From: Squalus acanthias
Lineage: Eukaryota
Length of the DNA stretch: 64,000 bases
NCBI GenBank assembly: GCA_030390025.1
Contig: CM059432.1
Coordinates: 26,600,001-26,664,000, forward strand
Direction: 5' to 3'
The notes beneath the pieces were generated by a model. That model was given only the letters and a program-made list of their open reading frames with translations, had not been told where the DNA came from and did no database searches. Of this stretch, positions 1-59,064 are shown piece by piece (within the stretch, counting starts at the first letter, position 1; each line of letters begins with the position of its first letter). The position numbers and the translations under genes were made by a program.

Positions 1-812
1 TCTAACTGTAATTTTCAGACATGAATTGGCACTTTGTGGAGCTGTGTAAATTGTGATTTTTAACGTACAATGCAATGCAACAACTTGGCTCAGATGCAAT
101 AAGATTTACTGGAGCGTGTTAAGGCAGTGGTTCAACCAAAGAAAAAATGAAGTTTGTTGATTTTCATGGATATGATATAATCAAGAGATGGGTTTTATCA
201 TATTTCACAACTTTTTCTAAAATAGTTTACCCACAGTGCTGCATCTTATTGAATTTCCAGAGATATTGCTGATGCAACTAGTCTGAATCTGATACATCAT
301 GGGAGAGGATAGGATTGGATAGGCTATAAGCATTAAGGAAGGACCATCCCAAAAATGTCAACAGCAGAAGGTAGTAGGAAGTCCCTGACATATTATTCAT
401 AAATTCAGGAGTAGAAGATCACGAAAGGTTTGGTTATCTTCCATTTGGCCAGGTTCCTGCAAAGATTTTATGACTCATGTGATCTTCCAATATCCTTGAG
501 ATTCCAACAATAAAAATGAGCTCTTTCCCGTTCTAGATCTGTACGTGGCTCACTAGGGATCTTGTTAGCCGTCTGCATCTCTCGCAGATGTGTACTCAAG
601 TAATGAGTCATCTCTCTTAATCTGAGGATCCTTGAGGCGTACTTTTATCCCTTTCCTTTGGGATCAAGACCCATACCACAAATGCTCCACTTGGTAGACA
701 AGTGCTGGCAATTGATTGCATTGAAACTGGAGAATATCAAACAATGACCCTTATAATCCCATCATTCAGGGTGGATTGATGATAGGCTAGTGCCTGCTAG
801 TCGAGATAGCAC

Positions 813-1790
813 TATGGAATATTTTACATCCACCTGAGAGAGCAGACAAGGCCTCGGTTTAACATCTCATCCGAAAGACGATGGCCCAGAAATTCGGCCG
901 AATACGGGAGAGTACGCACTGTGTACTCACCCGTATTCGGTCCCGAAGTGCTGGTTTTCTGCATGCACTGCGCATGCGCGGGAAACCGGCACTTCCGATA
1001 TTGCGAAGGGGGCGGTTCCTAAGTGAACCGCGTGCGCACTACAGGCTGTGCGCACGCAGCACACTTAGGTTTTTTTTCAGGTTTGAACGCGAGGGTAAGT
1101 ATGGAAGATTTTACACATGAAAAAAGGAGGCGTAAGACCCCCTTTTAACAAGGTAAGTAGTTAATTAAGTATTATTTTAATTTTTTTTCAACAGGTTTAT
1201 CTTTTTTAGAGACTTTAAAGAAAGGTAAGTTTATTTTTATAACTTTTAAAAAGAATTTAAATTTTTGCAAGAATTAAAATTTTTGTTTAAAGTGGTTAAT
1301 TTATTTAACTATAGTTATTTTATTAATGTGATGGTTTTTTTGAAATTTAATTGAGGTTTAGCTGTTCTTTTGGGGGCAATTTGTATTCATAGTTTTGACA
1401 GTTCTCCTGTCAAAACTATGAATGAAAGATGGTGTGCTGCCATTGGCTCTCCATGACCCACGTGATCCCAAAGGTCGCATCGAACTAACTGCGCCTCTGG
1501 GACACGCACACACTGCCCGCCGGCACCAGGGAGAGGCCCGGGACCCGAAGTTCGTGTGGGCCCAAAATAGAACGGCAGGCGCGGTAGGTAAGATCACGCG
1601 CGATCCTTACCCCCGCGGCAAGCCGGAGAGGCCAATTTCTGGGCTGATATGTCCAACAGTGCAGCACTCTCTCAGTGCAGCACTGGAGTGTCAGCCGAGA
1701 TTATGTGCTCAAGTGTCTGAAATGGCACTTGAACTCATAACTTCCTGACTCAGAAGAGAGAGTGCTACTTACTGAGCCACAGCTGATACT
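813..1790 (-). mobile_element. Deu-domain tRNA-derived SINE fragment, split by the MITE at 883-1645
   Basis: 813-882 and 1646-1790 are collinear with the complete SINE copies at 22843-23313 and 51684-52150 (ttttacatccacctgagagagcagac...ctcatccgaaagac | cagtgcagcact...tgagccacagctga). Confidence 0.75.
883..1645. mobile_element. Non-autonomous PIF/Harbinger-like MITE
   Basis: Termini GGCCCAGAAATT / AATTTCTGGGCT with a 3-bp TSD GAT on both sides; interrupts a SINE. Confidence 0.75.
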
Positions 1791-2040
1791 CCACCCACCC
1801 ATGCAGGCTAACCAGAAATAAAGCTGGAAATTGTGGCTTTTACATTTTTATCTGTTGTTGCTCATTGCTGTGGAATCTGCCCGCCCCCCACTGCCCACCC
1901 CACCACCCCCCCGCACACCCCCCCCGCACACCCCAAGTAAATGGGATGAATTCCACAGCACTAGGATTCCAAAATACTACAGAAAAACCTCTGTAGCTTT
2001 TAACTGAAATGCTTTGGCTCTTGTAGAAATTAAAGATTTG

Positions 2041-2619
2041 GGGGGGAAAATTTGGTTGATTTGCGCCTCCCGTTTGCGCTCTCGCCATGCGCAGCGCCCC
2101 GCTATGTCTGACAGGTTCTGGGGGACGTACGTGCGGCCGGGGCGGCGCAAATTAAAGGGGAGGTGCTGGACGGCCATTTTTGTTGCTGGCTGCCTGCCAG
2201 CACCTGTCCCCGTTGCTGTCCCCGGCTTCCTGTGCAGCCCCCCGCGGGGTGCCGGCTGCACAACGTGAGCCTGGCAGTCCTCTTGAGTGCTGGGCTCTTT
2301 TGCCGGCACTCTGATCCCTGGTGGCCCAGCTGGGCCCCGGGTCATGCTGCGCTAGGCCCCTCCCCTTTAATAAGGGGAGCAAGGCCTGCAGTACCGCGGC
2401 GCGATGTGCTGGAGCGCATGGCGCTGTGGCACATAGCACCGCGAAATTCACTCGCAGCGCTCCAAGAGGGAGGTGGGGCGCTTCCAGTAGCGCCCCATCT
2501 CCCTCTTGGGGCGCTACCAGTGAATTCCGGGCACGGGGGCGCTAACTTTTTCGGGGCGGTTCAAGTAGCGCCCCGGCGAAGTTAGCACCCCTAAGGGGGC
2601 GTGACCCAATTTTGCCCCC
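2041..2619. mobile_element. Non-autonomous PIF/Harbinger-like MITE
   Basis: Termini GGGGGGAAAATT / AATTTTGCCCCC, TSD TTG/TTG, repeated subterminal (T)AGCGCCCC motifs. Confidence 0.75.
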
Positions 2620-2639
2620 TTGGTGCCCTGATGGCTCAC

Positions 2640-3440
2640 AAGGGCATGATAGTGTAGTGGTTACATTACTGAACTAGTTAATCCAGAGAATGCGAGTTCA
2701 AATTCCACTGTGGTAGTTTGTGGATTTGAATTCAGTATTTTAAAAGCTGGTATCAGTAAAAGTGACCATGAAGCTGTCGGATTATCGTTAAAAACCCGGC
2801 TGGTTCATTAATTTCCTTTGAGGTTGGAAACCTGCTGTCCTGACTGAACTGGCCCATATAGTGGTTCGCCAACTCTGGTTGAGTGTATTCCTGGAGGTTT
2901 CATCACATGACTTCCTGCCTCCGACTGCTCCGCCCCCACGTTCCCGCCATTGGTTACCCGAGCCGTCCATCCTCACGGCCTTCCCTCGCCAATTGGAAAG
3001 CGAACAGACTCGGCATTCACCGATTGGATGATTCTTGACTGTCAGTCAAGCAGCCTTTATACCCATCTCCAATATTTTTTATAATTCATAAACAGAAGTG
3101 TTCAAAGCAAATGAAAAAAACACTTTTCTTTCACTGCCCCTATAATTTTCTCCAGGGTTGCTCGCAGCAGTGTCCTGGAGATTAATCTTCAATTCCTGGA
3201 GACTCCAAGCCAATCCTGGAGGGTCAGAAACCCTACCTATATGTGACTACAGTCCCACACCAATGTGGTTGACTCTTAAATGGCCTCCAAAGTGGCCTAG
3301 CAAGCCACTCAGTTGTATCAAACTGTTACAAAGAATAAGACTGCAGTGGTTCAAGAAGGAGGCCCACCACCACCTGCTCAGGGCAACTAGGGATGTACAG
3401 TAGATGTTGGCCTTGCCAGCAATGTCCACATCTGAATTTT
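2640..3440 (+). mobile_element. tRNA-headed bipartite SINE (5' and 3' ends match the single-ORF LINE at 16826-20048); interrupted at 2859-3235
   Basis: Box A-like TAGTGTAGTGG (~2650) and box B GAGTTCAAATTCC (~2694). The body matches 16826-17100 and the tail (agactgcagtggttcaagaagg...agggcaactagggatg...ggccttgccagc) matches 19929-20030. Confidence 0.8.
2859..3235. mobile_element. Non-autonomous hAT-like DNA transposon
   Basis: Degenerate TAGGGTTGCCAAC-type termini (tagtggttcgccaac ... gtcagaaacccta), repeated CCTGGAG motifs, flanks cccata/cctata; cleanly interrupts the SINE. Confidence 0.6.
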
Positions 3441-4546
3441 TAAAAATGGATTGTTCCAATTTGTTATGAGCCATACAGACTAGAAAGAGCCTATGTCCAT
3501 TCCCAGTCGCTACTAATCTCAGCCATGGCAGTGGTAGAATTGTAAAGACTGCAATTAGTCTCCATGCTACTGGGCTAGAGAGAGGAAAAGATATCATTTG
3601 GAATGTCTGTTCCTGATTTCCCTCCAAGTGACGTCTGCTGTAAATTGGGCCTGGGTGTATATCAAAATCAAGCTCAACTGTAATGCCCCTCTCCCCATGG
3701 TGGAATAACCCACAGGCACTCACTGTCTGGGCTCACACATGAAGAATGGCTACTTGAACAAGGTGTCAGAGAGCTACTGTGGTTTGGTACCCAGCGTGAG
3801 TCAGCACCTTCAGGAGAGGAGGGAGAAAATTGGACAGACAGAGAAATTGAGCTATTCAGCATGAATCCTTTCCACATCACTGCCAAGGGATGCAAAGCAT
3901 CAAAATTCAATCCTAACTGAAAATTAAATAATTCCGGATTTATTTATAGAATGAGCGCATTTTTCATTTATTATTGAAAAAGTCTGTCTGTTAAAACTGC
4001 TAGCTGCAGTTCATTTTTAGTTCTGATGCTTTCGGGCTAAAAGTCTGTTGTCTCTGCTCTGTCTGCTAATGACTCTCCGGCAGTCCCAGGATAATACTGT
4101 TCCTGGATTAGTCCAGGAGCTGTGCATTCTCTGCTCTCCGTTTAGTACATTAACATTGATTATTTGGAAATGCCGCAGTATCCCAGCGAGTTGCAGAGGA
4201 TCTGCTTAATGCATTCAGCAATAACACTGGGCTTGTTTAGACAGGAGGAGGTAAATTAATAGCGTACTTGCAGTGACAAAAAGCGCCACCTTCTATTGTT
4301 AATGTATTTATTATCGATGTGACGAGATAACACACGTATTCTCAGCTTTACTTAACACAAAACATTCATTCTCACAGGGTGCATAGATTTATGAGCTGTT
4401 TTGAGTCCAGAGGGGAAAGGATCTGGGTTAAACAGAAATAAAAGTGGGTCATTTGTATAATGTGGTCTGAGTTCCCTAACTTCAGCAAATGTCAATGTCT
4501 CATCTTGGTTTGTGTACTTAATTTACAGATATTTCATTAATAATCA

Positions 4547-4995
4547 GTATCAGCTGTGTCTCAGTGGGTAGCACACTCGCCTCTGAGTCAGTTGATTTTG
4601 GGTTCAAGTCCCACTCCAGGGATTCGAGCGCATAAATCTAGGCTGACACTCCAGTGCAGTGCTGAGGGAATGCTGCACTGTCAGCGGTGCCGTCTTTCAG
4701 ATGAGATGTTAAGCCGAGGCCTCTCAGGTGGACGTAAAAGATCCCAAGGGACTATTTCAAAGAAGAGTAGGGGAGTTATCCCTGGTGTCCTGGCCAATCC
4801 ACATAACAAAAACAGATTATCTGGTCATTATCACATTGCTGTTTGTGGGAGCTTGCTGTGCGCAAAATGGCTGCCACGTTTCCCACATTACAACAGTGAC
4901 TCCATTCCAAAAGTATTTCATTGGCTGTAAAGCGCTTTGAGATGTCTGGTGGTCCTGAAAGGCGCTATATAAATGTAAGTCATATTGTTTATTTT
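4547..4995 (+). mobile_element. Deu-domain tRNA-derived SINE (SacSINE1/AmnSINE-like)
   Basis: tRNA head (ctcagtgggtagcac...gggttcaagtccc), Deu-like core (gacgtaaaagatccca...gaagagtaggggagttatccctggtgtcctggcc), L2-type tail aaggcgctatataaatgtaag. Confidence 0.85.
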
Positions 4996-7298: not shown

Positions 7299-7825
7299 AT
7301 GGGTGCTGTAGTTTTTGTCCCCCTTGCCCTGCAGCATGATAGGGGGAATGAGCAGAGGCAACACAGAGGTCAAGCTGCTCAAAGAGGGAGGAGGGAAGAA
7401 GGGCTCTCAGTAGGAGGCCAGATGCACCCACGGTCTTCAGGGAGCAATTCTCCTATCTCAACCTCAGCGAGGAACAGTGTCTCCGCTTCACTAATGAGGT
7501 GCTCACTGAAATCTGCCACCTGTTGCAGGCAGACCTTTAGCCTCAGAGCAGGGTGAGGATGTCATTGCCAGTGGCTGTGAAGGTGAGCGTGGCCATAAAC
7601 TTTTATGCGTCGGGCTCCATCCAGGCTGGAGCAGGCGACATTTGCAACATCTCACAGTTCGCCATTCACCATTACATAAGGGAGGTCACTGAGGCTCTGT
7701 ATGCAAAGAGAGGTGAATACATTTCATTCTCCCTTGCCAGAGAAAAGCAGGCAGAGCGATCACGTGGCTTCGCTAGGATAGCAGGCTTCCCCATGGTGCA
7801 GGGTGCCATTGACTGCACACACATC
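7299..7825 (+). pseudogene. Harbinger DDE transposase, N-terminal half (disrupted)
   Basis: VAVKVSVAINFYASGSIQ...GDICNISQ...[20 protein letters not shown] is the HARBI1-type motif. Confidence 0.85.
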
Positions 7826-8420
7826 CTTTCCAGCATGGACATGGTGCACAGATCCATTAGCACACTTGTGGACCCAACCATGATGTAGCATCTGATGGCC
7901 GATGTCTAAGCTTCCATTGCAGCACAAGCAGAAGCCACCCAATGTCTGAGTGCTGCAGTGGAAACTCAGAATGAAGTCATGCAAGCTCAACTTGCTGCCA
8001 CGCAGGCACAGACTGCTGCCATCATGGCTGCGTTACCAGTGTTGAAAGGGGCTTGCAGGGTGTCACAGCAGTCCAGCAATCTGTCCTCCAACAGATTGCC
8101 AGGATTGCAGAGGCGCCTAGCCAGGGGAATGGTAGTGGCTCCGTGAAGCACAAATCTCAGGATGACAACATTCGTCCTCCCACCACTGCCTCTCTGTCAG
8201 TGCCCTTGCTGTTGCCTGTCAGCCAGCCAGCCCAGACTGCTGCCTCCCATGCTGAGGTGGTGCACTCTAAAGCCGGGCCTAATAGGCCCAGAGCTGCTTG
8301 AGGTCGGCCGGCAATGCCATCTGCAGTCTCCCCCGACTGAAGTTAGCAGCCATCCACCAGCCATGCTGCAGCTACTCGGGTTGCACTGCGTAACAGCACT
8401 ATGAGAGGCAAAGGCACACG
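7826..8420 (+). pseudogene. Harbinger Myb/SANT accessory protein, C-terminal remnant
   Basis: SQDDNIRPPTT...QPAQTAASHAEVVHS...RPRA aligns with the C-terminus of the 33598-34443 ORF. Confidence 0.7.
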
Positions 8421-8799: not shown

Positions 8800-10980
8800 T
8801 TTAAAATTCGTTCCGGGATGTGGGCGTCGCTGGCAAAGCCAGCATTTATTGCCCATCCCTAGTTGCCTTGAGAAGGTGGTGGTGAGCCGCCTTCTTGAAC
8901 CGCTGCAGTCCGTGTGGTGAAGGTACTCCCACAGTGCTGTTAGGAAGGGAGTTCCAGGATTTTGACCCAGCGACGATGAAGGAACGGCGATATACTTCCA
9001 AGTCAGGATGGCCTGTGACTTGGAGGGGAACTTGGAGGTGGTGGTGTTCCCATGCGTCTGCTACTCTTGTCCTTCAAGGTGGAAGAGGTTGCGGGTTTGG
9101 GAGGTGCTGCCGTAGAAGTCTTGGCAGTTGCTGCAGTGCATCTTGTAGATGGTACACACTGCAGCCACGGTACACCTGTTGTGGAGGGAGTGAATGTTTA
9201 AGGTGGTGGATGGGGTGCGAATCAAGCGGGCTGCTTTGTCCTGGATGGTGTCAAGCTTCTTGAGTGTTGTTGAAGCTGCACTCATCCAGGCAAGTGGAGA
9301 GTATTCCAACACACTCCTTACTTGTGCCTTATAGATAGTGGAAAGACTTTGGGGAGTCAGGAGGTGAGACACTAGCCGCAGAATACCTAGCCTCTGACCT
9401 GCTCTTGTTGCCACAGTATTTATGTGGCTGGTCCAGTTAAGTTTCTGGTCAATGGTGACCCCCAGGATGTTGATGATGGAGTATTCAGCGATGGTAATGC
9501 CGTTGAATGTCAATGGGCGGTGGTTAGACTCTCGCTTGTTGGAGATAGTCATTGCCTGGCACTTGTGTGGCGTGAATGTTACCTGCCACTTATCAGCCCA
9601 AGCCTGAATGTCGTCCAGGTCTTGTTGCATGCGGGCATGGACTGCTTCATTATCTGAGGAGTTGTGAATGGCACTGAACACTGGGCAGTCATCAGCGAAC
9701 ATCCCCATTTCTGACCTTATGTTGGAGAGAAGGTCATTGATGAAGCAGCTGAAGATGGTTGGGCCTAGGATACTGCCCTGAGGAAGTCCTGTAGCGATAT
9801 CCTGGAGCTGTGATGATTGACCTCCAACCACCACAACCATCTTCCTTTGTTCTAGGTATGACTCCAGCCAGTGGAGAGTTTTCCCCCCAATTCCCATTGA
9901 CTTCAGTTTTACTAGGGCTCTTTGATGCCACACTCGGTCAAATGCTGCCTTGATGTCAAGGGCAGTCACTCTCACCTCACCTCTGGAATTCAGCTCCATA
10001 GTCCATGTTTGGACCAAGGCTGTAATGAGGGCGGGAGCCGAGTGATCCTGCCGGAACCCAAACTGGGCATCAGTGAGCAGGTTATTGGTGATTAAGTGCC
10101 GCTTGATAGCACTGTCGATGACACCTTCCATCACTTTGCTGATGATTGAGAGTAGACTGATGGGGAAGTAATTGGCCCGATTGGATTTGTCCTGCCTTTT
10201 GTGGACAGGACATACCTGGACAGTTTTCCACATTGTTGGATAGATGCCAGTGTTGGAGCACAAGTCTTCAGCACGACAGCCGGGATGTTGTTGGGGCCCA
10301 TAGCCTTTGCTCTATCCAGTGCCCTTAGCCGTTTCTTGATATCAGGTGGAGTGAATCGAATTGGCTGAAGTCTGGCTTCTGTGATAGTGGGGACCTCAGG
10401 AGGTGGCTGATATGGATCATCCACTCGGCACTTCTGGCTGAAGATGGTTACAAATGCTTCAGCCTTGTCTTTTGCACTGACGTGCTGTGCTCCACCATCA
10501 CTGAGATGGGATATTCATGAGCCTCCTCTCCCATTAGTTGTTTAATGGTCCACCACCATTCATGACTGGACTGCAGAGCTTTGATCTGATCCGTTGATTG
10601 TGGAATCTCTTAGCCCTGTCTATAGCATGCTGCTTCCTCTTTCTAGCATGCATGTAGTCCTGTGTTGCAGCTTCCCTAGGTTGGCTCCTCATTTTTAGGT
10701 ACGCCTGGTGCTGCTCCTGGCATGCTCTTCTATTGAACTAGGATTGCTCCCCTGGCTTGATGGTAATGGTAGAGTAAGTGATATGCCGGGCCATGAGTTA
10801 CAGATTGTGGTGGAATACAATTCTACTGCTGTTGATGGCCCACAGCGCCTCATGGATGCCCAGTTTTGAGCTGCTAGATCTGTTCTGAATCTATCCCATT
10901 TAGCATGGTGGTAGTGCGACACAACACGATGGAGGGTGTCCTCAGTGTGAAGACTGGACTTCGTCTCCACAATGACTGCT
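8800..10980 (-). mobile_element. 5'-truncated copy of the single-ORF CR1/L2-group LINE (RT domain)
   Basis: ORF 9061-10263 has RT motifs (LDIKAAFDRV, GLPQGSILGP, FADD); collinear with 17790-20040. Confidence 0.92.
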
Positions 10981-15530: not shown

Positions 15531-16825
15531 TGCAAGGAAGGTGGATTGTTACCTCTTTCGCGCTCCTTTCTGTTTTCACCCTGTGACCCTTCAGCCTACC
15601 ACCCAACAGTCAGCCTGTCCCCTCAGCACATCCCTCCACACTAAGCGCAATTCGTAACCTGCCTACATACCTATCTAAAGCCCTTCTCCAGCTCCCCATT
15701 TCTCCCACTGACAGAACCAAGAATAAATAGCGAGACAACACAAAAGTCACAGAAGTCAAAACGACAGAAGAAAGAGAGAAGAACAGAAAACTGAAAGGAA
15801 AGACAGAAAAAAGGGTACATTGAGAAACTAAACCAACAGCATGAGCACTACAGAAGCAGAAATACCGAGACCATGTCCTGCGATTTACCATGGACAGGGC
15901 CGCAGGAGAGCTGCTAATATGCATTATATTAATAGTATGTGATGTACATTTAAATGTGAACCAGGAGGGTGAACTAAATGAATAATCAGAGCGTTAATAT
16001 AGCAAGGATCTTGGCACTGCTGCAGCTGTGTCGTTCAGTATGTGAAATGTTTCAAGCAAGGAGTGATTCATTCAAACAGCCTACTTTGCCGTGAATTTAT
16101 AATTGACCCTGATGGTTAGTTACCCTTTATCAGATTCGTCATTTGTTTCATACTGTAAAATTGTCACCGTTATTCTGACGCTTCCTTACTCCCTGGCTTG
16201 ATAGCATTGCAGTAGCTACTAAGCATCGATTCCTCCTCTTAATCCTTGAAATATGGAAAATCTTTGCAGCTTTCAAAGCCAGTCACATCTTTTCTTTCAT
16301 TCACAGTAATCCAACCCCCCTCATCTGAAATCCAGACCCAGCAAACTGTCTTCTCCTCTAATTCTTGTAGATTTGTTAAGTATCCAGGCTGATGCCATCT
16401 CGGTCCAGCCACCTAATCACTGCCACTTTTTTCAAACCTGTAATTCAAAACCCTCCTTTACACCTACTGCATATCAATTACAAAAATAATGGATCTCTGA
16501 TTTCAAAGGTGCAATCTTATCAAAGGGTTCAGATGCACTCTAAAAATAAACCATCTGAACCTCTCAATGAGGTCGAATTTGAGTGGCCTCGCCTGACGTT
16601 AACAAAGTGGTAACACCCTCAAAATGGGATCGGTAGCCTTACCTGTTAACAGGCAGTTAAATGGCTGTAATCCCCTTCCCGCCTCCAGGAGGTGGGACCG
16701 GCGTGGGTAGGCTACCCGCCCCCTGGGAAGATGGCGCGGAGACGGGTTGGGGCCCCCAGTTTCTGCCATTTTCCCGGCAGACCCGTCTCCAAACCCGACT
16801 CCCCAGGGCTGCCAAGATCGCGCTC

Positions 16826-19800
16826 GTGAGTTCAAATCCCACCACGGCAGCTGGGGAATTTAAATTCAGTTAATTAAATAAATCTGGAATAAAAAGCTAG
16901 TATCAGTAATGGTAACCATGAAAGTATCGGATTGTCGTAAAAACCCATCTGGTTCACTAATGTCTTTTAGACAAGAAAATCTGCCATCCTTACCTGGTCT
17001 GGCCTATATGTGACTCCAGAGCCACAGCAATGTGGTTGACTCTTAACTGCCCTCCGAAATAGCCTAACAAGCCACTGAGTTGTAAAAAAATGCTGCGAAA
17101 AACAATAAGAATGAAACCTGACAGACCACCTGGCATCGACGTCGGCACCGGCTACAGACACGGCAACGGTACACCCAGCCCAGTCAATGCTGCAAACTCC
17201 TCCTCATCAACATCTGGGGACTTGTGCCAAAATTGGGAGAGCTGTCCCACAGACTAGTCAAGCAACAGCCTGACAGTCATACATTTCAGCCAATGTCTCA
17301 AACTCCTTCATCACCATCACCATCCTACCGGCAGGACAGACCCACCAGGGGTGGCGGCACAGTGGTATACAGTCGGGAAGGAGTGGCCCTGGGAGTTCTC
17401 AACATTGACTCCGGACCCCATGAAGTCTCATGGCTTCAGTTCAAGCATGGGCAAGGAAACCTCCGGCTGATTACCACCTACCGCCCTCCCTCAGCTGATG
17501 AATCAGTACTCCTCCATGTTGAACACCACTTGGAAGAAGCACTGAGGGTATCAAGGGCACAGAATGTACTCTGGGTGGGGGACTTCAATGTCCATCACCA
17601 AGAGTGGCTCAGTAGCACCACCACTGACCGAGCTGGCCAAGTCCTGAAGGACACAGCTGCCAGTCTGGGCCTGCGACAGGTGGTGAGAGAACCAACATGA
17701 GGAAAAAATCTACTTGACCTCGTCCTCACCAATCTACCTGTCGCAGATGCATCTGTCCATGACAGCATTGCTAGCAGTGACCACCGCACAGTCATTGTGG
17801 ATATCAAGTCCTGTCTTCACACTGAGGACACCCTCCATCGTGTTGTGTGGCACTGCCACCGTGCTAAATGGGATAGATTCAGAACAGATTTAGCAGCTCA
17901 AAACTGGGCATCCATGAGGCGCTGTGGGCCATCAGCAGCAGCAGAATTGTATTCCACCACAATCTGTAACCTCATGGCCCGGCATATCCCTCACTCTACC
18001 ATTACCATCAAGCCAGGGGACCAACCCTGGTTCAATAAGGAGTGTAGAAGAGTATGCCAGGAGCAGCACCAGGCGTACCTAAATATGCGGTGCCAACCTG
18101 GGGAAGCTGCAACACAGGACTACATGCATGCTAAAAAGCAGAAGCAGCATGCTATAGACAGGGCTACGCAATCCCACAATCAACGGATCAGATCAAAGCT
18201 CTGTAGTCCTGCCACAACCAGTCGTGAATGGTGGTGGACCATTAAACAACTAACGGGAGGAGGAGGCTCCATGAATATCCCCATCCTCAATGATGGTGGA
18301 GCCCAGCACGTGAGTGCAAAAGACAAGACTGAAGCGTTGCAACCATCTTCAGCCAGAAGTGCCGAGTGGATGATCCATATCGGCCTCCTCCTGAGGTCCC
18401 CACCACCGCAGAAGCCAGTCATTAGCCAATTCGATTCACTCCATGTGATATCAAGAAACGGCTGAGTGCACTGGATACAACAAAGGCTGTGGGCCCCGAC
18501 AACATCCCGGCTGTCGTGCTGAAGACTTGTGCTCCAGAACTATCCGCACCCCTAGCCAAGCTGTTCCAGTACAGCTATAACACTGGCATCTATCCAACAA
18601 TGTGGAAACCTGCCCAGGTATGCCATGTCCACAAAAAGCAGGACAAATCCAATCCGGCCAATTACCGCCCCATCAGTCTACTCTCAATCATCAGCAAAGT
18701 GATGGAAGGTGTCGTCAACAGTGCTATCTCCAGCACTTACTCACCAATAACCTGCTCACTGATGCCCAGTTTGGGTTCCGATAGGACCACTCGGCTCCAG
18801 ACCTCATTGCAGCTTTGGTCCAAACATGGACAAAAGAGCTGAATTCCAGAGGTGAGGTGAGAGTGACTGCTCTTGACATCAAGGCAGCATTTCACCGAGT
18901 GTGACATCAAGGAGCCCTAGTAAAACTGAAGTCAATGGGAATCGGGGGGGAAACTCTCCACTGGCTGGAGTCATATCTAGCACAAAGGAAGATGGTTGTG
19001 ATGGTTGGAGGTCAAACAGCACAGCCCCAGGACATTGCTGCTGGAGTTCCTCAGGGCAGTGTCCTAAGCCCAACTATCTTCAGCTGCTTCATCAATTACC
19101 TTCCCTCCATCATAAGTTCAGAAGTGGGGATGTTCGCTGATGACTGCACAGTGTTCAGTGCCATTCGCAACTCCTCAGATAATGAAGCAGTCCATGCCCG
19201 CATGCAGGAAGACCTGGATGACATTCAGGCTTGGGCTGATAAGTGGCAAGTAACATTCGCACCACACAAGTGCCAGGCGATGACTATCTCCAACAAGCGA
19301 GCGTCTAGCCATCGCCCCTTGACATTCAATGGCATTATCATCGCTGAATCCTCCACCATCAATATCCTGGGGGTCACCATTGACCAGAAACTTAACTGGA
19401 CCAGCCACATAAATACTGTGGCAACAAGAGCAGGTCAAAGGCTGGAAACTCTGCGGCGAGTGTCTCACCTCCTGACCCCCCAAAGCCTTTCCACCATCTA
19501 CAAGTCACAAGGCACAAGTAAGGAATGTGATGGAATACTCTCCACTTGCCTGCATGAGTGCAGTTCCAACAACACTCAAGAAGTTCGACACCATCCAAGA
19601 CAAAGCAGCCCGCTTGATTGGCACCCCATCCACCACCTTAAATATTCACTCCCTCCAGCACCGGCGTACCGTGGCTGCAGTGTGTACCATATACAAGATG
19701 CACTGCAGCATCTCGCCAAGGCTTCTTCAGCAGCACCTCGCAAACCCGCAACCTCTACCACCTAGAAGGACAAGGGCAGCAGGCGCATGGGAACACCACC

Positions 19801-20048
19801 ACCTCCAAGTTCCCCTCCAAGTCACACAACATCCTGACTTGGAAGTATATCGCCATTCCTTCATCGTCGCTGGGTCAAAATCCTGGAACTCCCTCCCTAA
19901 CAGCACTGTGGGAGTACCTTCACCACACAGACTGCAGCAGCTCAAGAAGGTGGCTTACCACCACCTTCTCAAGGGCAACTAGGGATGGGCAATAAATGCT
20001 GGCCTTGCCAGCGACGCCCACATCCCATGAACGAATAAAACAAAAAAA
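16826..20048 (+). mobile_element. Near full-length single-ORF LINE (APE endonuclease + RT; CR1/L2 group) with a tRNA/SINE-like 5' head; frameshifted pseudogene
   Basis: Endonuclease motifs (NIWGL, DRPTRGGG, YRPP, GDFN, LDLV, SDH), RT motifs (PQGSVL, FADD) and an A-rich tail. No ORF1: the endonuclease begins ~370 nt from the 5' end. Confidence 0.92.
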
Positions 20049-23559: not shown

Positions 23560-23950
23560 TCCCAGTTATTCATGAAGGTAGCATTATTGTTTTCACATCA
23601 TGCTGCCAGCCACTCTTTAAATCCTCAGTTTTCTTGGTGAACTCCCTTCCTTTCCCAAACACCAAAAGTATACCAGACAATATTACTTTGCATCAGTATC
23701 TTTGAGTTTAAAGGCAGTCCTCATGTAAATGACTATTGCGGCCGTTATATTATTTCTCCCTTTGTTGTTTACTTCTATGTAGACTGCCATCACTACAGCC
23801 CTCCTTATGCCCTTCAGTACCCCTTCTAACCTTTCCTCAATAGGTATTGTTCTGGCTCCAGTTAGACAACTCATCATCCTGCTGCCATTGTCTTTATAAC
23901 ATGCACACTCCTGAGCGAAGAATCCTCTACAACTACAATCTCTCTGTGAC
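23560..23950 (-). pseudogene. Old, degenerate CR1 ORF1 (SGNH esterase) fragment
   Basis: SCLTGART...LEGVLKG...VVMAVYIEVNN...KLK...VILSGIL aligns with ORF1 at 59824-60771. Confidence 0.55.
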
Positions 23951-25179
23951 TTGAAACTGCATTTTAATCCAAAATATGGGGGAGGGATGAGACTTTTGTC
24001 TGTGATCCCGCCTGAAATCGGGCTGTCTTAAAATTATATCTGGGCCATTCAGGAGGGAAATCACAAAGTAGGGTGGTGGAAATCTTAAACTCTGCCTCAA
24101 AAGGCTGTGGATGCTAGTTCAACTGAAATTTTCAAGACTGAGATAGATAGATTTTTGTTAGGTAAGTGTAGCAAGCGATAGGGAGCAACGGTAAATGGAG
24201 TTACAGATCAACCACGAGCTAATAGAATGACAGAAAAGGCTCAAGGAGCTGAATGGACTACTCCTGTTCCCATGTTCTTACGCATCGTGATGGACATGGT
24301 GGGAAAATGTGGGAGGCCTATGTCGTGATTTCACTCACCCTGCTCCAGTCGGGGCTGCTGCTACCAACATCTTCCCTGCCCGCCGCTTGTAAATGATGAC
24401 AGAATAATGCGGGCCAAGTCCCAGCAGATTTTCCTTCTTTCCGCCCGCATTACTGCCACTTCCCAGGGCCATCCTTAGGAACGTGGCGGTGGGCCTGGGG
24501 ATGTGGGTGTTTGGCTGTGATGTTCTTGCAGTTAAATAACCGGCCCCGAATATCCATAGACAGTGGCCCTAACAGAATTTGCAGGGTCAGCAAGAGGGAA
24601 CCTAGATTTGAATGGAGCCAGCAGACGCCTGCCCCACTATTGGTGCATCTCCTGTGCCCACCTGCTCCATGTGTCCTGAAATCAGGGGGCCAGTCCCCAG
24701 GTCCACCCCTCTCTGAGATCCCATACATTCACATTTCTTTGGGAGTTCAGGCTGTTCCCTTCACCTGGACGCCACCCCCCCCCCCCCCCCCCCCACACCT
24801 GGTGGGAGCCCACTTGCGCTCCTCTGGAGGCTGGTATGCCTCTACTCCCTCTTGGTGTACCAGCCTTCAGTAATGCAACATGGAAGTAGTAACACACAGT
24901 GTACGTAATCCCTGCCTCTGGCTCTACTCTGGCTTGGCGTCCTCGGTGTCATTGGCCTGATAAGGGAAAGGCAAAGGTTCAACCATTTACAAGGCCAACT
25001 GGGAACTACCAGAGTTGACAGGGACCTGGTATATCAAGTAGATACACCGGAGTTGACAGGGACCTCAAGTAGATTTGTGGCTTCATTGTCCAGCCTCACA
25101 CATGAAGAAAATATACTGTGCTGAGGTATTAATGGTTGACTGAAAGAAAAAGAAATAGAGATAAATCTTTGCCTGCCAT

Positions 25180-28100
25180 GTTAAGTGGCAAACATTTAAA
25201 GAAATAATCCAAAATTCTCAACGAATATACATTTCATTGAGAAATAAAAACTCCATGGGAAAAGTGATCCATCCGTGGCTAACTAAAGAAGTTAAGGATA
25301 GGATTAGATTAAAAGAAGAGGCTTATAAGGTTGTGAAGAATAGTAGTAAGCCTGAGGATTGGAAGAACTTTAGAAACCAGCAAGGGATGACCAAAAAATT
25401 GATACAAAGGGAGAAAATAGAATATGAGAGTAAACTAGCAAGAAATATAAAAACAGATTGTAAGAGCTTCTACAAGTATGTAACAAGCAAGAGAGTAGCA
25501 AAAGTAAGTGTTGGTCCCTTAGAGGCTGAGACAGGAGAAATTATAATGGGGAATAAGGAAACGGCAGAGACTTTAAACAAATATTTTTTATCTGTCTTCA
25601 CAGTAGAAGACACAGAAAGCATACTAAAAATAGTGGGGGACCAAGGGGCTAATAAGAGTGAGGAACTTAAAGTAATTAATATCAGTAGAGAAAAAGTACT
25701 TGAGAAACTAATGAGACTAAAAGCTGACAAATCCCCTGGACTCGATGGCCTACATCCTAGGGTTCTAAAACAGGTGGCTACAGAGATAGTGGATGCATTG
25801 GTTGTGATCTTCCAAAATTCCATAGATTCTATAATGGTCCCAGTGGATTGGAAGGTAGCAAATGTAACCCCACTATTCAAGAAAGGAAGGAGAGAGAAAA
25901 AAGGGAACTACAGGCCAGTTAGCCTGACATCAGTCATCGGAAAATGCTGGAATCCATTATTAAGGAAGTGGTAACAGGGCACTTAGGAAATCATAACATG
26001 ATTAGGCAGAGTCAACATAGTTTTATGAAAGGGAAATCGTGTTTAACAAATTTATTAGAGCTTTTTGAGGATGTAACTAATAGGGTAGATAAAGGGGAAC
26101 CAGTGGATGTAGTATATTTGAATTTCCAAAAGGCATTCTATAAGGTGCCACATATAAGGTTGCTACACAAGATAAAGGCTCATGAGGTTGGGGGTAATAT
26201 ATTAGCATGGATAGATGATTGGTTAACGGACAGAAAACAGAGAGTAGGGATAAACAGGTAATTTTTCAGTTGGCAGGCTGTAACAAGTCGGGTGCGTCAA
26301 TGATCAGTGCTTGGGTCTCAGCTATTTACAATCTATATTAATGACTTAGATGAAGGGATTGAGTAGAGTGTATCCAAGTTTGCTGACGATACAAAGCTAG
26401 GTGGGAAAGTAAGCTGTGAGGACACAAAGAGCCTGCAAAGGGATATAGACAGGTTCAGTGAGTGGGCAATAACGTGGCAGATGGAGTATAATGTGGGGAA
26501 ATGTGAGGTTATTCACTTTGGTAAGAAGAATAGAATAACAGAAAAACAGAATATTTTTAAATGGTGAGAAACTATTAAATGTTTGTGTTCAGAGAGGAAG
26601 GACAGGAAGCTAGGAAAAGGTGGACAGGTGGCTCTGTTAATTAATGATGGTATTAGCACAATAGGAAGGGATGACCTAAGTTCAGGAAACCAGGATGTAG
26701 AAGCTGTTTGGGTAGAGATGAGAAATGATAAAGGGAAGAAGTCACTTGTGGGAGTGGTGTACAGGCCCCCTAACAGTAACCACACGGTAGGATGGAGTAT
26801 AAAGGAAGAAATAATGGGAGCTTGTCAGAAAGGTATGGCAATAATCATGGGGGATTTTAATCTACTATAGACTGGAAAAATCAGATGGGCAAAGGTAGCC
26901 TAGATGAGGAGTTCATAGAATGTTTTCGGGATAGTTTCTTAGAACAGCACGCTCTGGAGCCAACCAGAGAGCAGGCTATACTAGACCTGGTATTGTGCAA
27001 CGAGATAGGATTAATTAATGACCTCATAGTGAAGGCGCCCCATGGTAGCAGCGATCATAATATGATTGAATTTTACATTCAGTTTGAGGGAGAGAAGAGT
27101 GGGTCCAAGACTAGTATTTTAAACTTAAATAAGGGCAATTATGAGGGCATGAAAGCAGAGCCAGCTAAAGTGAACTGGCAATTTAGGTTAAGGGATAGGT
27201 CAATAGAGTTGCAGTGGCAGACATTTAAGGGGATATTTCAGAATACACAGAATATATACATTCCAACGAGAAAGAAAAATTCCAAGGGGAGGACCCACCA
27301 TCCATGGTTAACTAAAAAAAGTTAAAGATAGTATCAAACTTAAAGAAAAAACATATAATTGCACAAAGATGGGTGGCAGGTCAGAAGATTGGACAGAATA
27401 TAAAAAAAAGCAAAGAATGACGAAAAGATTAATAAGGAGAGAAACATTAGAGTACGAGAGAAAGCTAGCTAGAAATATAAAAACTGATAGTAAGTTTCTA
27501 TAGATATTTTAAAAAGAAAAGAGTTAACAAAGTGAGCGTTGGTCCTATAGAAAGTGAGTCTGGGGAATTAATAATGGAAAATAAGGAGATGGCAGTTGAA
27601 TCGAACAGGTATTTTGCATCGGTCTTCACTATAGAGGATACAAGTAACATCCCAGAAATAGCTGTAAATCAGGAAATGGAAGGGAGGGAGGAACTCAAGA
27701 AAATTACAATCACCAGGGAAGTGGTACTGAGCAAATTGTTGGAGCTGCGGGCTGACAAGTCCTCGGGTCCTGATGGACTTCATCCTAGGGTCTTAAAAGA
27801 AGTGGCTGGTGAGATAGTTGATGCGTTGATTTTAATTTTCCAAAATTTCCTAGATTCGGAGAAGGTTCCATTAGATTGAAAAATAGCGAATGTAACTCCT
27901 TTATTCAAAAAGGGAGACAGAAAGCAGGAAACTACAGGCCAGTTAGCTTAACATCTGTCATAGGAAAGATGTTAGAAGCTATTATTAAAGACGTTATAGC
28001 AGGGCATTTAGAAAAGTTCAAGGTAATCAGGCAGAGTCAACGTGGTTTTGTGAAAGGGAAATTATGTTTAACAAATTTATTGGGAGTCCTTTGAGGAAGT

Positions 28101-34755: not shown

Positions 34756-35464
34756 CTAGAAGCGGCTTCTTATCAGCCGTTCACGGACGGCCCTTGCACT
34801 GACAACATTGTGGGCCTCCCTCCCATGTTAGTGCTGCTGCTGATCCTCCTCCTCATCCTCCTCCTCCTCTTCCTCCTCCTCCTCCTCAGATGGTGCACCA
34901 GTCCCTAGTGGCATTGGCTGGGTCCTCAGGATTGGCAGGTTGTGAAGCATGCAGCACACAACTATGAACAGGGAGACTCGCTCAGGAGAGTACTTCAGGG
35001 CTCATCCTGAGTGGTCCAGAGAGCGGAACCGTTTCTTCAGCACGCCGATCGTCTGCTCAATTATGTTCCTGGTGGTGATATGGCTCTCATTATACCGCAG
35101 CTCGGCAGGGGTATTGGGGTTACGGAGCGGTGTCATCAGCCAGGTGCAGAGTGGATAACCCTTGTCCCCGAGGAGCCATCCACTTGGGTGATGCGGCGCC
35201 TGGAAAAGGTCTGGTGCACCAGTCTGGCGCAGGATGAAAGCATCGTGGCTGCTGCCAGGATAGCGGGCATTGACGGCGAGTATGAGCTTTGTGTGGTCAC
35301 AGACCAACTGCACATTTAAGGAGTGGAACCCCTTGCGGTTTCGGAATACCTCTGCATTTTCATGCGGTGCCCGCAATGCCACATGCGTGCAGTCAATGAC
35401 GCCCTGCACCATGGGGAAGCCCGCTATCCTAGCAAAGCCACATGCGCGTTCATGCTGTTTGGCC
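34756..35464 (-). pseudogene. Harbinger DDE transposase, C-terminal part
   Basis: GVIDCTHV...[15 protein letters not shown]...[10 protein letters not shown]...LLGDKGYP...[12 protein letters not shown]; one internal TGA at 35002. Confidence 0.92.
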
Positions 35465-37153
35465 TGTAAGGGGTTCTTGTCGTGCTTGTGTCACAGACGG
35501 TGCTGGTGCGAGGTTAGGCCTTCGTTGCCTAATACTATTGCTTGCTCTGGTCTCCGGCCAGCCTTGTTGCAATAAGCACCTGTGAGTGGTTCGACCCACT
35601 CGCCCTTACGGTTCTAACACTGGACTTAGGTGCGAGAGCAGTAATGCAGAGAAAAACTCAAATAGACCCGGTTGAATAGTACGAAATGGAAAATCTTTAT
35701 TACATAGCGTCCAAGATCATGAAGTACATGTCATAGGCGCAAATTAACGAGAGTACAAGTATGCATACATTCATAAAGCTTGGTCTATGGTAATGAAGAA
35801 CGCACGGCACATCGTAAAAAACATTATACTTTATCCTTAATAAAACCATCCTCCCCTATCAATACCTACACTACATCTAGATTTGTAGGATCGGGAAACA
35901 TGCTCACCACTCGTGATACTTCGGAGAATTTTAAAGTGAGGCACTCGGCTCGTTCGCTGCAGCGCCTGACTGTCACGTGTTTGGAGGGGTCTCTGTACCC
36001 CACTTGTTTATCTTCGCTGCTGCGACAAGCAGGCCGGGCTCCCCGTTGTCATGAAGAACTCGACATAACTCGGGCCCTGTTGTAGAACTCAAAGAAAAGT
36101 CTTCCTGTACTGACACCAGTTGTCGGTAGAATTCAATGAAGAGTCTTCCTATGGTGATGAAGTCGATGGACCTAAACCGGTTCGTGCAATAACCCGTAGA
36201 ATTCAAGAAATGAGTTCTATGTTTTCGGGCGCGGTCGGGGTTTACTGAACGCGGCGGCACGTGGATTCTTCTTCTTTTCTTGTCATTTCGTCTTTTCTTG
36301 TTGGGCCTTCAGGTCCAGACATCGTTTACCGACTCTCGGGATGGTGCACCCGGTCACTTGCCCTTGTCGAGGCGGCTCGTTCCGTTTGAGCTCCACCCAA
36401 CATTCGAATAACCGACCAGTACGGCTAAAAGTCAAGAGTCAACAAAGTCCAGAGAAACACAGAAGGCTGCTCGTCCAGCAGAGCGATACCCGAGGATCAG
36501 AATAAGAGAATAAGAGAGCGATGGACATTTGTTCTCTATAGTTATAGTGCTGTGTCCCCTTATCTCCCGCTCAAATCTTAATGTTTGTCCTTTGTATAAT
36601 ATTGGCGCTCAAAACTCCCAGCTTGGGGTGATTCTTTCCTTAACGGGTTTCGGTAGCACCTGAAACTGGCCAACTACCCGTTAATGTTTTCCTCATTGTT
36701 GAACCGGCTAGGAGCCTCCCTGGCTGGGTTTTTGGGGGCCCCCGAATGCTTGCTTAATCACCCGTCGATGTCTCTCTCATTGTAGAGCCGTGGGGGTATT
36801 TGTGTATTGATGTGTCTGGATGGGCCTTCGATTGCCCAGTACAATGGTCCTTACTTGTGCATGGACAACGATTCCAGCACTTATATCTTTTGCTATTGTT
36901 TCGAATGCAAACAGGTTGCATCCTGTCTTTATCAGTGTTTATCGAGTATGATCCCGTCTTATATTGAAATGTTTATTCGAACGCCATCTTGTCTGCCCAC
37001 TGTGATTCTGGAAGCTTCTGCCACGATGCGCGGCAGCCATTTTACAGGGTTCTGTGTCCTTTATATCATGACAGCATTTTGTTTAATAAAACTGATCAAA
37101 CGAACCTGCTTCTATCTTGTTATTTTGAATCGCGATAATTGCGAAACTTTACA
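35465..37153 (-). repeat. 3' LTR (1689 bp)
   Basis: Direct repeat of 46483-48169; AATAAA on the minus strand at 35696-35701. Confidence 0.97.
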
Positions 37154-37166
37154 GTCCCTCCTGTTG
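37154..37166 (-). promoter_or_regulatory. Polypurine tract
   Basis: The minus strand reads AACAGGAGGGAC immediately before the TG of the 3' LTR. Confidence 0.75.
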
Positions 37167-37552
37167 ATGCGAATAACTCCGCTTATCGTATCAATTAAAA
37201 GTGGTGGTGAGCAAAATTATCCCGATTCTCCACATCCAAACACTCCCTTAACTTAAACTATCTATGGCCACCATGCAGTCCTCATTTCCCAGGGAAATTA
37301 CATTGTTTAAACTTGGACAAATCGTAGGCAGTATTGCCTTTAAACTTACATTGCGTATACGCCTTCCAGGTGCAGCAGGCCGATGCCTCTCGCACCACCT
37401 GTATATGCATTTTATTATACATGGAAAAATAATCAAAACAACTCTTTTAAAAATACAAAGTTCCAAAAACTTAGTTATACATACTCATAACTAAACAATC
37501 AATTACAAAAAAAACCACACATGGTAAAATGGAGCGGCGTCATCCTGGCTGT

Positions 37553-39904
37553 TTACGCGGTACTTTCTTCGTTCACGCGCACGTAACGTTCTCTCCACTC
37601 CCCTGTGTTCTCCTGCTTTGTGAGGCATCTGCCTCTCTTGCAGTGTACGACCAATAGGTACACTACAATTATAACTTGGCACACAACCAAAATGTGGGAG
37701 GCTATCCTGATCCATGAAGGAACTTCAATATTGGTGAACAGATCCCACCACGGTGGGATTACTATGTCCAAAATTTCTGTCCCTATCTCTACAGCCTTTT
37801 GTTCCACGGTGTAAAAATGTTTTTGTGATACCGCGACGGCTTTCAAAAGCTTGGTGAGGTGTTCAGGGAGAGGGGGAATGATGTATCCGAAATGCGCGAT
37901 GAATCGCTGCAAGTCTGTGAAATTCTCTTTTACTGTGAGGTGAACAGTGGATGGTTCGGGGATCGGGACAATTCGCTGCTGTGCCACTTGAACTTCAGCC
38001 CTGGGTTTAAAACAGAAACTGCTGTCACTCACCGGACACCGGCTGTGGTTTCCATGCTGGTAGTGTTGCGCTGCAGTGGTAACGCAATATGTTCCACCCC
38101 CTGTGTATGCCACCTGCGGAAGCACATGATCTTGTGTCATTGCTTCCATGGTGCAATTCATGGGCTTGGCACCAGCCGTTCTGAACCCGCACTGTGGTGT
38201 TAAAAAGGCATTCAAGTGCTGGGGACACAGTATGATGTGTGCTCCCCGGCTATGACAACCCGATAGGTCGGTACCTGTCATCGTTTGCTACCAGCGGATG
38301 ACGTAAGGTGGGACCGCTGCGTAGCGAATGTGGGCTCCCCCCTGAATGACACCAATGTTCTCCACCCGATACACCGGGGCGGGCTTTGCTGTGTCGCCCA
38401 ACACCAGCATACGCAGTACTATACCCATGATAGTAAGGTTTGACCGTCCGCAGTCCACGGGGACTGGGTATGCCTCTGAGGCTAGCCTGAGCTGGCACGG
38501 GCTTAATGCGTTCTGAAAAGGGTGGAGCGCCTGCAGGTGTTTGTTACTTATCCAGGACGGGACCAAACCTTGTTTTAAATCCTCCAAATTACTGCGGCCC
38601 TCGCCCAGTAACCACGCCCCGTATAGTACGCACACCTCGTTCTGTGCAGCTTGATCGGATGCATTCCGATCTTCCCTGATCAGGGCATTTACCGTTCTCG
38701 CATGCTTCTCCAGCTCTGCTATAATCTCTTTTAAGTGTAGTGTCATGGCCTGGTCCTCATGTAACTCAGACCCTACTACCTTGTTTTCGCTTGTAAGGAT
38801 GCTTTTTAATTGTGTTTTTAAACCATTGATCTGGGTCTGCAGCTCCACGTTGTCTAGAGCGTTGACCACAGATGTTCCTGTATTAAACGCAGTGAACATA
38901 TCGTTCACAATACCCCTTCTTTTTCTCCCCACCTGACCCAAAACTTCGTGTGGTGTGGTGTACAAGCTTGTTTTGTCAATCTCTGCAAAATAAAACTCGT
39001 AGAATTGCCTGAACATGTTTGTCAACAGTACCTGGTACAATTTTTCCATCTCTCTGGGGCACCACTCTGGTAAACGCACCTCGGTGAGATTTAGAATCAC
39101 CAAAGCCACCGCATAATGTACCCCTTGAAATAGTATCTGGTCTGTTGGGACCAGTACCAAACCATTCCCGGGCCCCTTAGTGGTTTTAGGGCACTCTTCC
39201 TCCTGAGCCAAAACCACCGGAATCGTGGGCGGAGACTTGCGTGGGCGTGTGATGAGTTCAGTGGCGTTTACCGGGATCGGGGAGAATGGAGCTCCGCACC
39301 CCTTTGTGCTGACATCCCACCTCATCCCTTTCCCGTTATCCTGCCACTGGTGTACGAAAAATATGGATATACCCTTGGGGCAAACGTACTTCGATCCCCA
39401 CATACAAACATATATTCCCTCATCCGGTTCCCACCATTTGTCCCAACAGACTTTCAATTGTCCGTTAGTCCCCGTAATTGTCCGATGGGTATTGTTACCC
39501 AATCGCTCCCACTCAACCGAGGAATTTCTCATATTCTTGCTTAATTTCTGTAACCACCACCATCGGCTCAATGGGACCTTCCCATTGCATGTCAAACAAA
39601 TCCTTTTGCCGACGGTGACGCTGATCCTGGGTGCAATGATCCTCACTCTGGGGCACAGTAAAGAAGTCTCTTTGTAGGCAAATCCGGATGCGCTGGAGTA
39701 TTCCGTTGAATTCGTTCCCAGCCATCCCGGCCACCTTCCCTTGTGGAAATAAGTGGCGGTCTCCTCAGCCTTTCGCTTCCCGGTCCCATCCGTCGCGATG
39801 GGGGCCGTGTCCCTGGAGCAACCAAACACAACGACATCATTGGTGAGGCCCCGATAGGCCAATCCATATCCGATCGTTGCAAGCACTATCAGAATCCGTT
39901 CCAT
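37553..39904 (-). CDS. env: Envelope / class I fusion glycoprotein (~783 codons), interrupted by one in-frame TAG at 38288-38290
   Basis: Signal peptide MERILIVLATIGYGLA; N-glycosylation sequons; furin site RKRR followed by a fusion peptide and heptad repeat; Cys-rich region; TM ILVVCQVIIVVYLLVV. The 538-aa and 242-aa ORFs share one frame (W*QTM). Confidence 0.9.
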
Positions 39905-40382
39905 CTTTCCTGGTTCCTGTGATCAGATAAAATGATGTAGCCAGCCTCCCAAGAGTCTCTGGCTTTTGTCAAGGGTGAGCGGGTCCCTTGACCTCGTCTC
40001 ACGTAAAAAGACATGTATGCTGGATAGACTTTAACTATTCCTATCTCTAACTCCCATCATTTTACCATTTACTTAAAATTAAACTACAATCTTACCAAAC
40101 TTATACACTATAAACTTAAACTTATCCTAAACTTAAACTGTACAGCGCCGCCCATTCCCAGGGCGGCCTACCTAAATTCTGCGAAGGCTGCCACGAGCTT
40201 TTCCCAGTGGCGGGGGGGGCACTGACCCCTTCCTTTGATCTGCCGCAGCCTGTCGCCGCTGCGCTGGGACTGGGATCTCCCTGGGCTGCCTTGACCTTGA
40301 ACTTACGCCTGGGGGTGCACGGGGGATTTGGCCACGACTTCCGGGGCTGGGGTGTCCGACTTGACCTACGGAGGGCTACTTT

Positions 40383-40708: not shown

Positions 40709-40859
40709 GTGGAACTCCACTCGCAGCCCCTATCTCCCCTAAGCTTGATCGAGGACGAAACCTTCGTCCTCCGACCCCAGCACCTCTCCGACCGGGTCAC
40801 TACCTTGGTCGAGCTCCTCGAGCTCTTCCTCATCTGAATCCCAACCCCAAGAAAAGATC

Positions 40860-46478: not shown

Positions 46479-46482
46479 TTTC

Positions 46483-59000: not shown

Positions 59001-59064
59001 TGAGCAAATTGTTGGAGCTGCGGGCTGACAAGTCCCCGGGTCCTGATGGACTTCATCCTAGGGT

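Follow-up and report, generated by a model that had tools for sequence, protein, structure and literature searches.

The Zenon-type LINE family treated here avoids T runs on its coding strand, opens with a tRNA-derived head that has a fixed first base, and is accompanied by SINEs made from the same head and tail. The element at 16825-20048 of the window (the whole analysed stretch of 64,000 nt from Squalus acanthias) is a decayed copy of this abundant 3.3-kb shark LINE of the CR1 group. Judged from the sequence, the family is, on balance, probably an autonomous LINE that RNA polymerase III (Pol III) would transcribe over its entire 3.3 kb and that would be translated from a non-AUG start; an earlier note on this DNA, which had proposed a Pol III-driven and cap-independently translated retroelement, is partly supported.

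According to the prevailing division, LINEs are Pol II units and SINEs are short non-coding Pol III units, Pol III processivity being the cited reason for the shortness of SINEs. In these terms, passages of Kojima 2024 (PMC10886601) describe LINEs as Pol II units and state that weak Pol III processivity caps length at ~1.3 kb or less. If the Pol III reading holds, this division would no longer stand, given a coding LINE that thrives under a tRNA promoter, a natural long Pol III mRNA would be translated without cap or AUG and offer a directly testable model of how such RNA gets to ribosomes, and the exchange between LINEs and SINEs would also run from SINE to LINE. The architecture itself is real and extends throughout a recently named LINE family. 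Among the literature searched (titles and abstract openings, exclusive of Repbase reports and most subscription papers), no Pol III-transcribed coding LINE is described, and no report was found that brings Zenon, shark, tRNA and SINE together.

The Element and Its Family

Table 1. Features of the Zenon-type copies and of a related SINE fragment in the window.
Feature	Position	Strand	Remark
Zenon-type LINE copy	16825..20048	+	majority nt 69-3306 aligns to 16825-20038; 94% identity to family majority
Box B (T-loop) of tRNA-derived head, GAGTTCAAATCC	16828-16839	+	from sequence
SINE-type body acting as 5' UTR	16840..17082	+	several upstream ATGs inside; common to short elements
TAA closing the main frame, then A-rich tract and Arg-rich stretch in the ORF frame	17083..17193	+	putative non-AUG start region
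Out-of-frame ATG opening a 48-codon overlapping frame	17111..17113	+	ATA in a large subfamily
Single APE endonuclease and reverse transcriptase ORF	17194..19982	+	in pieces in the window copy
3' stem-loop with AATAAA (19991-19996)	19982..20027	+	common to SINE derivatives
A-rich tail	20036..20048	+	from sequence
Second Zenon copy, 5'-truncated (majority nt 1062-3304)	8803..10978	-	T4 only at the very 3' end
Older fragment of a tRNA SINE, boxes A and B both present	2640..2859	+	~190 nt at 73% identity to the LINE head

The family majority of ~3,305 nt, built from 50 copies (of 60 loci, 2 were dropped as duplicates and 8 as either rearranged or duplicated), consists of head, SINE-type body, A-rich tract, APE-RT frame, 3' stem-loop with AATAAA and A tail. 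Its APE-RT frame, with domains assigned from Pfam, comprises 936 aa counted from the first endonuclease strand; the frame of the window copy is broken by private stops and frameshifts. Individual copies diverge 3-8% from the majority. Variants shared by at least 8 of 97 copies are synonymous in 42 and non-synonymous in 31 cases and include no stop, while private variants of the 97 copies number 477 synonymous and 1,529 non-synonymous. Because shared variants favour synonymous changes and private ones non-synonymous changes, the Zenon source lineages were coding, and the APE-RT ORF is under purifying selection in the lineages that multiplied. In about four of ten aligned copies, the endonuclease frame is broken by the loss of 14 nt between short direct repeats (family nt ~520-535, window ~17277); such copies may stem from microhomology deletion on repeated occasions or from a subfamily that is non-autonomous. 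Among 21 copies with both ends, no target-site duplication of at least 7 nt was found, and there were three 6-nt matches.

Assignment to Zenon is based on a 40-nt stretch of the window that recurs exactly in SquAca_Zenon-1 and -2 (supplement of PMC13343379) and on the likeness, by eye, of the first 400 letters to the published elasmobranch Zenon consensus. The element shows the traits of Zenon, namely a single APE+RT ORF, no ORF1 and a poly-A tail; the lack of ORF1 and the poly-A tail are given for elasmobranch Zenon in passages of PMC13343379. Thus, the absence of ORF1, correctly pointed out in the earlier note for what proves to be a single APE+RT frame in both window copy and family, carries no weight for the Pol III reading, as it is general to Zenon. 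The traits of canonical CR1 (esterase ORF1 and microsatellite tail) are present in the CR1 at 59821-63713 of the same window and absent from the element. As for a tRNA SINE, there is a 5' head with boxes A and B, but the element is neither short nor non-coding (3.3 kb, 936-aa ORF). Its closest protein relatives come from a sevengill shark and a ray (77-88%), others being at 25-39%, and a scan of a metagenome with the single protein gave no matches. A reverse transcriptase tree of 33 rows, none of them a named Zenon, sets the element apart from the window CR1 (100/100). The main text of PMC13343379 makes no mention of tRNA, polymerase III or promoter; head, T-run depletion and AUG-less frame are accordingly not described there.

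A tRNA-Derived Head Fused to the Coding Region

Box B had been noticed at 16828 and is indeed found there (16828-16839). The SINE at 2640, said to show box A, carries both boxes, and its match to the head of the LINE is genuine, although it extends over ~190 nt (SINE 2681-2859) at 73% identity instead of the ~270 nt claimed. The missing box A, put forward as a caveat, is in fact lacking in the window copy, but only because this copy is 5'-clipped: it is without the first 68 nt of the family, i.e., start base and box A, and the family does possess box A. All 40 scored matches in the own genome are near full length for a query of head plus ORF. In 29 related copies, fetched with a query that started at box B, the first base is identical in 19 and lies within 3 nt in 23, and boxes A and B are present with at most one mismatch in 26 and 25 copies, respectively; the common first base of the family lies 8 nt before box A. 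As this first query began at box B, 40 further copies were picked by the downstream junction alone, and 25 of them extend to within 7 nt of the family start. The junction of body and leader, which joins head to ORF, has 3,047 exact matches (reversed control: 0).

The same fusion recurs in other species. All seven rows of elasmobranch Zenon, from five species, open with a box A/box B head (by eye, first 400 letters), with box B being one base short in the published consensus of one shark or ray species. By eye, the stretch between the two boxes diverges among sharks and rays, whereas the boxes themselves are conserved. Six 10-mers of box B match only six rows in a table of 1,004 rows (first 400 letters), all of which are elasmobranch Zenon, and in three rows of hagfish and coelacanth Zenon the first 400 letters are, by eye, headless and contain T runs. 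The head is hence consistently fused to the ORF in five shark and ray species, and a one-off juxtaposition of SINE and LINE, named in the earlier note as a possible refutation, is not what is found.

The intact heads of two other copies reach 26.3 bits with the Rfam tRNA model, the gathering score being 29. Neither for the window nor for 60 of the 80 related metagenomic loci scanned (see below) did ARAGORN predict a tRNA, which is no evidence, since the program is too strict for SINE heads. In head nt 28-70 (e.g., copy L018, 2365-2444, minus strand), the anticodon loop reads AGT (Thr), like reported MetaSINE heads. A hairpin is retained in the long variable arm of the head, its two sides changing places from one species to another (by eye). 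Global RNA structure gave no signal in the 5' 550 nt (z 0.34) or in two heads (z 0.57 and 0.22).

Depletion of T Runs on the Coding Strand

In vertebrates, transcription by Pol III ends at T4 and also at T runs that are interrupted. The sense strand of 16969-20048 had been reported to be free of T4 with about six TTT, and counting bears this out (0 T4 and 6 TTT versus 14 A4, 11 C4 and 8 G4); on the plus strand of the window, no other stretch without T4 is as long. The T4 at 16965 is a private mutation at a site where the family has TTT. For the second copy, the claimed absence of T4 is right for 8810-10980, although a single T4 is located exactly at its 3' end (8806-8803). The CR1s of the window are rich in T4 or longer runs as stated, with 6, 14, 3 and 3 runs in the four stretches tested.

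Dinucleotide shuffles of the two single Zenon copies yield P values of 0.19 and 0.17 for the absence of T4 and of 0.046 and 0.03 for TTT. The absence of T4 in single copies is thus not significant, and the signal is stronger in the family majority: over the whole element, the majority of 50 copies holds no T4 and 7 TTT. A consensus with T4 at the expected rate, which the earlier note had named as refuting, is not what is found. The majorities of the ATA-class and ATG-class subfamilies are both free of T4 and of stops, and individual copies contain 34 T4 in 132 kb. With codon use fixed, 1.9-2.0 T4 are expected in the ORF (P 0.09-0.12 for zero), and the absence of T4 by itself is weak evidence and not significant. 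In part, the scarcity is explained by an ORF that is poor in T and Phe (19% T, 1.9% Phe, TTT:TTC 3:15 in the majority).

Synonymous-codon shuffles of the ORF give a clearer result, with 5 TTT observed and 11.2 expected (P 0.004), 1 versus 7.9 motifs with T in four of five positions (P 0.007) and 74 versus 90 TT (P<0.001), all for the ORF of this genome alone. Runs of A, C and G are at expectation in these shuffles, and A3 is somewhat low under a codon-order shuffle (P 0.011). The comparison with codon-shuffled controls suggested in the earlier note therefore upholds a depletion of TTT and of 4-of-5-T motifs, while the absence of T4 remains at P ~0.1. The intact CR1 at 60750, used as a control, is not depleted of T runs; it stands for its family, since its rounded identity to each of 40 scored copies is 100%. 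Related LINEs show no comparable depletion either: among 80 related metagenomic loci, 72 have an ORF of at least 400 aa, none of these is T4-free, and their lowest ratio of observed to expected TTT is 0.77 versus 0.45 in the ORF of the present family. Six related ORFs with at most 24% T still hold 3-11 T4. The pattern of boxes A and B was found upstream of 0 of the 72 ORFs, only 18 of which had the ORF start and 150 nt before it.

The 3' End and Short Derivatives

The 3' stem-loop is predicted at -23.7 kcal/mol (z -3.7), with 0 of 200 shuffles being as stable, and AATAAA lies 40 nt ahead of the A tail. In short elements, family nt 1-325 are joined to the last 67 nt (377 exact junction matches), and such head/tail joints occur in contigs of two of four other organisms. 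Within the window, SINE-type pieces that join Zenon body to Zenon tail are seen at 3236-3432 and 52899-53058 (plus strand).

Before the A tail, a single T is found in 10,027, T2 in 2,289, T3 in 1,285, T4 in 913 and T5 or longer in 1,438 cases (the last by subtraction; LINE and SINE tails pooled). T4 or longer thus precedes 2,351 of ~15,950 tails, including that of the second copy, and TTT occurs in 0 of 338 internal T-A junctions. Passages of PMC9599045 report polyadenylation of Pol III-made SINE RNAs that carry AATAAA plus a terminator, and also that 3' T runs lengthen after insertion as tails shorten. In view of this lengthening and of the steady decay of the ladder of T lengths, the 3' T runs were rejected as proof of Pol III termination; they are compatible with Pol III only.

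Where Translation Starts

The ATG at 17111 is out of frame, as had been noted, and in the majority no in-frame Met follows the first endonuclease strand until residue 250, far inside the ORF. Eight ATGs lie before the ATG at 17111 in the family majority. The AUG-less opening is real, but as an argument it carries no weight, since the window CR1 is likewise without a Met before its endonuclease domain. A Met stands ahead of the first endonuclease motif in 18 of the 19 related ORFs in which this motif could be identified.

The main frame stays open back through the A-rich tract to a TAA without any AUG, and the stretch after the tract reads as a basic, Arg-rich N-terminus. Across the A tract, 82 of 85 copies with an anchor (92 of 97 had both flanks) show a spacing divisible by three, although the same is expected from slippage by threes, as the tract is (AAT)n-like. 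The main frame is free of stops in 80 of these 82 in-frame copies, whereas the other frames have stops in 9 and 82 of 82. Spacings determined by eye are 24, 24, 24 and 21 in four other species and 23 in SquAca_Zenon-1; the column majority is, like SquAca_Zenon-1, one base short in the A-rich tract, where copy-level data were used. A three-codon frame (start-Ala-stop; family nt 303-311, window ~17059-17067, mutated in the window copy) belongs to the main frame, precedes the TAA by ~20 nt and recurs in the published heads of five species; it could feed re-initiation or persist as part of a hairpin.

We clearly favour a non-AUG start over a frameshift from the ATG at 17111. The latter, which is unlikely though worth keeping in mind, concerns translation only and corresponds to what we propose for the window CR1: the ATG would open a short leader, and a -1 frameshift near an invariant stretch before the first endonuclease strand would lead into the ORF. 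In four other organisms the majority likewise has this ATG, the invariant stretch (copy L038, 1679-1700) has no listed difference, of four clear leader changes between species three are synonymous in the ATG frame and one in the main frame (by hand), base periodicity favours the ATG frame (3.2 versus -5.2 bits), and the CR1 of the window has T TTA AAC at its ORF1-ORF2 junction. However, the stretch in Zenon holds no X XXY YYZ heptamer, and 40 of 97 sampled copies (20 of them picked for it) have ATA instead of ATG, with a subfamily majority whose ORF is free of stops. Moreover, shared leader variants other than deaminations are synonymous in four of four cases in the main frame and in one of four in the ATG frame, and the frame is conserved upstream of the ATG.

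Transcription by Pol III and Alternative Readings

We lean towards Pol III transcription as the best single explanation of the head together with the T-specific depletion. The fuller scenario seems to us evenly poised: a coding vertebrate retrotransposon would have switched to Pol III before the split of sharks and rays, its uncapped 3.3-kb RNA, purged of U runs and AUG-less, serving as both mRNA and template and yielding SINEs by internal deletion. TFIIIC would bind boxes A and B, Pol III would start ~8 nt before box A, and selection would have removed terminator-like T runs, allowing for full-length RNA. This uncapped RNA may recruit ribosomes at the A-rich tract and start within a few codons after the TAA, with ACG (in most copies) as near-cognate candidate. 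The protein would then bind the 3' stem-loop and reverse-transcribe its own RNA, the promoter being regenerated in each full-length copy. The LINE probably acquired the head itself in the ancestor of sharks and rays, through template switching with a partner SINE.

Alternatively, though this is a minor possibility, a SINE may have been captured as 5' UTR, and an internal promoter situated in the head, the body or the CpG-rich leader would drive transcription by Pol II; the boxes would persist by exchange with the partner SINE or as RNA structure, and the poverty in T would stem from splice or decay signals or from a bias of the reverse transcriptase. Replacement of the 5' UTR is common in LINEs, which counts in favour of such a capture. 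An internal Pol II promoter would be compatible with the fixed 5' end as well, AATAAA (40 nt ahead of the tail) and the poly-A tail fit Pol II, CpG peaks at family nt 301-400, the absence of T4 alone has a P of ~0.1, and LINEs are considered Pol II units in passages of PMC10886601 and PMC5786205. Nevertheless, only T is depleted, only on the coding strand and only in this Zenon family, and neither the CR1 of the same genome nor the 72 related LINEs, under the same Pol II constraints, are depleted. In addition, the first base lies where a tRNA-type promoter would place the start, and the boxes outlast the diverging stretch between them across sharks and rays (by eye).

Less probable still is a split of labour, in which Pol III RNA is copied while the protein comes from capped Pol II read-through of copies that reside in genes or behind host promoters, the element being a giant SINE that also encodes its own enzyme. 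Head and T-run depletion would be explained equally well, no translation of uncapped RNA would be required, and the eight ATGs upstream of the frame in the majority would be accounted for; yet the purifying selection on the ORF is simplest if the translated RNA is the copied RNA, and a capped RNA would still require a non-AUG or frameshift start. A chance juxtaposition of a SINE with a low-T LINE, for which the single-copy P values of 0.17-0.19 might speak, has next to no probability and is ruled out by the family-wide junction (3,047 matches versus 0 in the reversed control) and the same head in five species.

Other Features of the Window

The CR1 at 59821-63713 (plus strand) is intact and very young (rounded identity of 100% for 40 of 40 scored copies), with an esterase ORF1 and a 988-codon ORF2. 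A canonical slippery heptamer, T TTA AAC, is located at 60762-60768 directly before the ORF1 stop, and the first Met of ORF2 is residue 260, which suggests that ORF2 may be expressed by -1 frameshifting; the literature search on such a junction frameshift in CR1 gave one general report only. An LTR retroelement at 38288-46508 (minus strand) has long open gag-like and pol-like frames and an env-like frame (labelled by reading the translations), with repeats beside it at ~35777-37256 and 46769-48293. Near-identical sets of ORFs at 23683-27879 and 54964-59107, ~31.3 kb apart, point to a local segmental duplication. The fragments at 7541-7888 and 35002-35490 may derive from Harbinger/PIF transposases, and 4544-4930 (plus strand) may be a Deu-domain SINE such as SacSINE1.

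Comparison with Known Systems

The elasmobranch Zenon elements named in PMC13343379 (SquAca_Zenon-1/-2/-3 and Zenon-1 of CarCar, ScyCan, RhiTyp and HypSab) are the same family, with ~3.3 kb, APE+RT and poly-A. Lepidopteran Zenon and its internally deleted partner Persaeus, in passages of PMC6740152, are alike in pairing an ORF1-less poly-A LINE with a short element that shares both of its ends, whereas Persaeus is described there as being without tRNA homology and without a Pol III promoter. Hagfish and coelacanth Zenon differ in being headless within their first 400 letters. LINEs headed by HDV-like ribozymes (R2, RTE, Ingi) carry a self-cleaving ribozyme in the 5' UTR, and four Zenon copies gave no match to a self-cleaving ribozyme family at E up to 5, a divergent ribozyme being possible.

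MetaSINEs have a 66-bp Meta-domain behind a tRNA-Thr-like head, to be compared with the anticodon loop AGT of the Zenon head; searches of the supplements for MetaSINE motifs returned nothing relevant, the Meta-domain sequence itself being given only in a figure. T+ SINEs (Can, B2; PMC9599045) and TRIMp3 (Cassandra, Helenus; PMC10886601) are alike in carrying Pol III promoters on retroelements and in having AATAAA, a T run and an A tail at the 3' end, but are, in the passages concerned, all non-coding and at most ~1.3 kb long. Further context is provided by parts of PMC4824008, PMC11481361, PMC5499810 and PMC4494074. A possible precedent is RTE-1_DAn with its relatives, LINEs reported with tRNA-like sequence in PMC5786205; it differs in belonging to the RTE clade, and the passage is without position, promoter role or T-run data. 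Finally, bipartite tRNA SINEs (Bov-tA, SINE2-1_ACar, CoeSINE4; passages of PMC5786205 and PMC4494074) resemble the short derivatives in combining a tRNA head, a 5' part shared with a LINE and the 3' tail of a LINE. In those systems, as described in these passages, the head sits on the non-coding SINE alone, whereas here it is found on the autonomous coding element.
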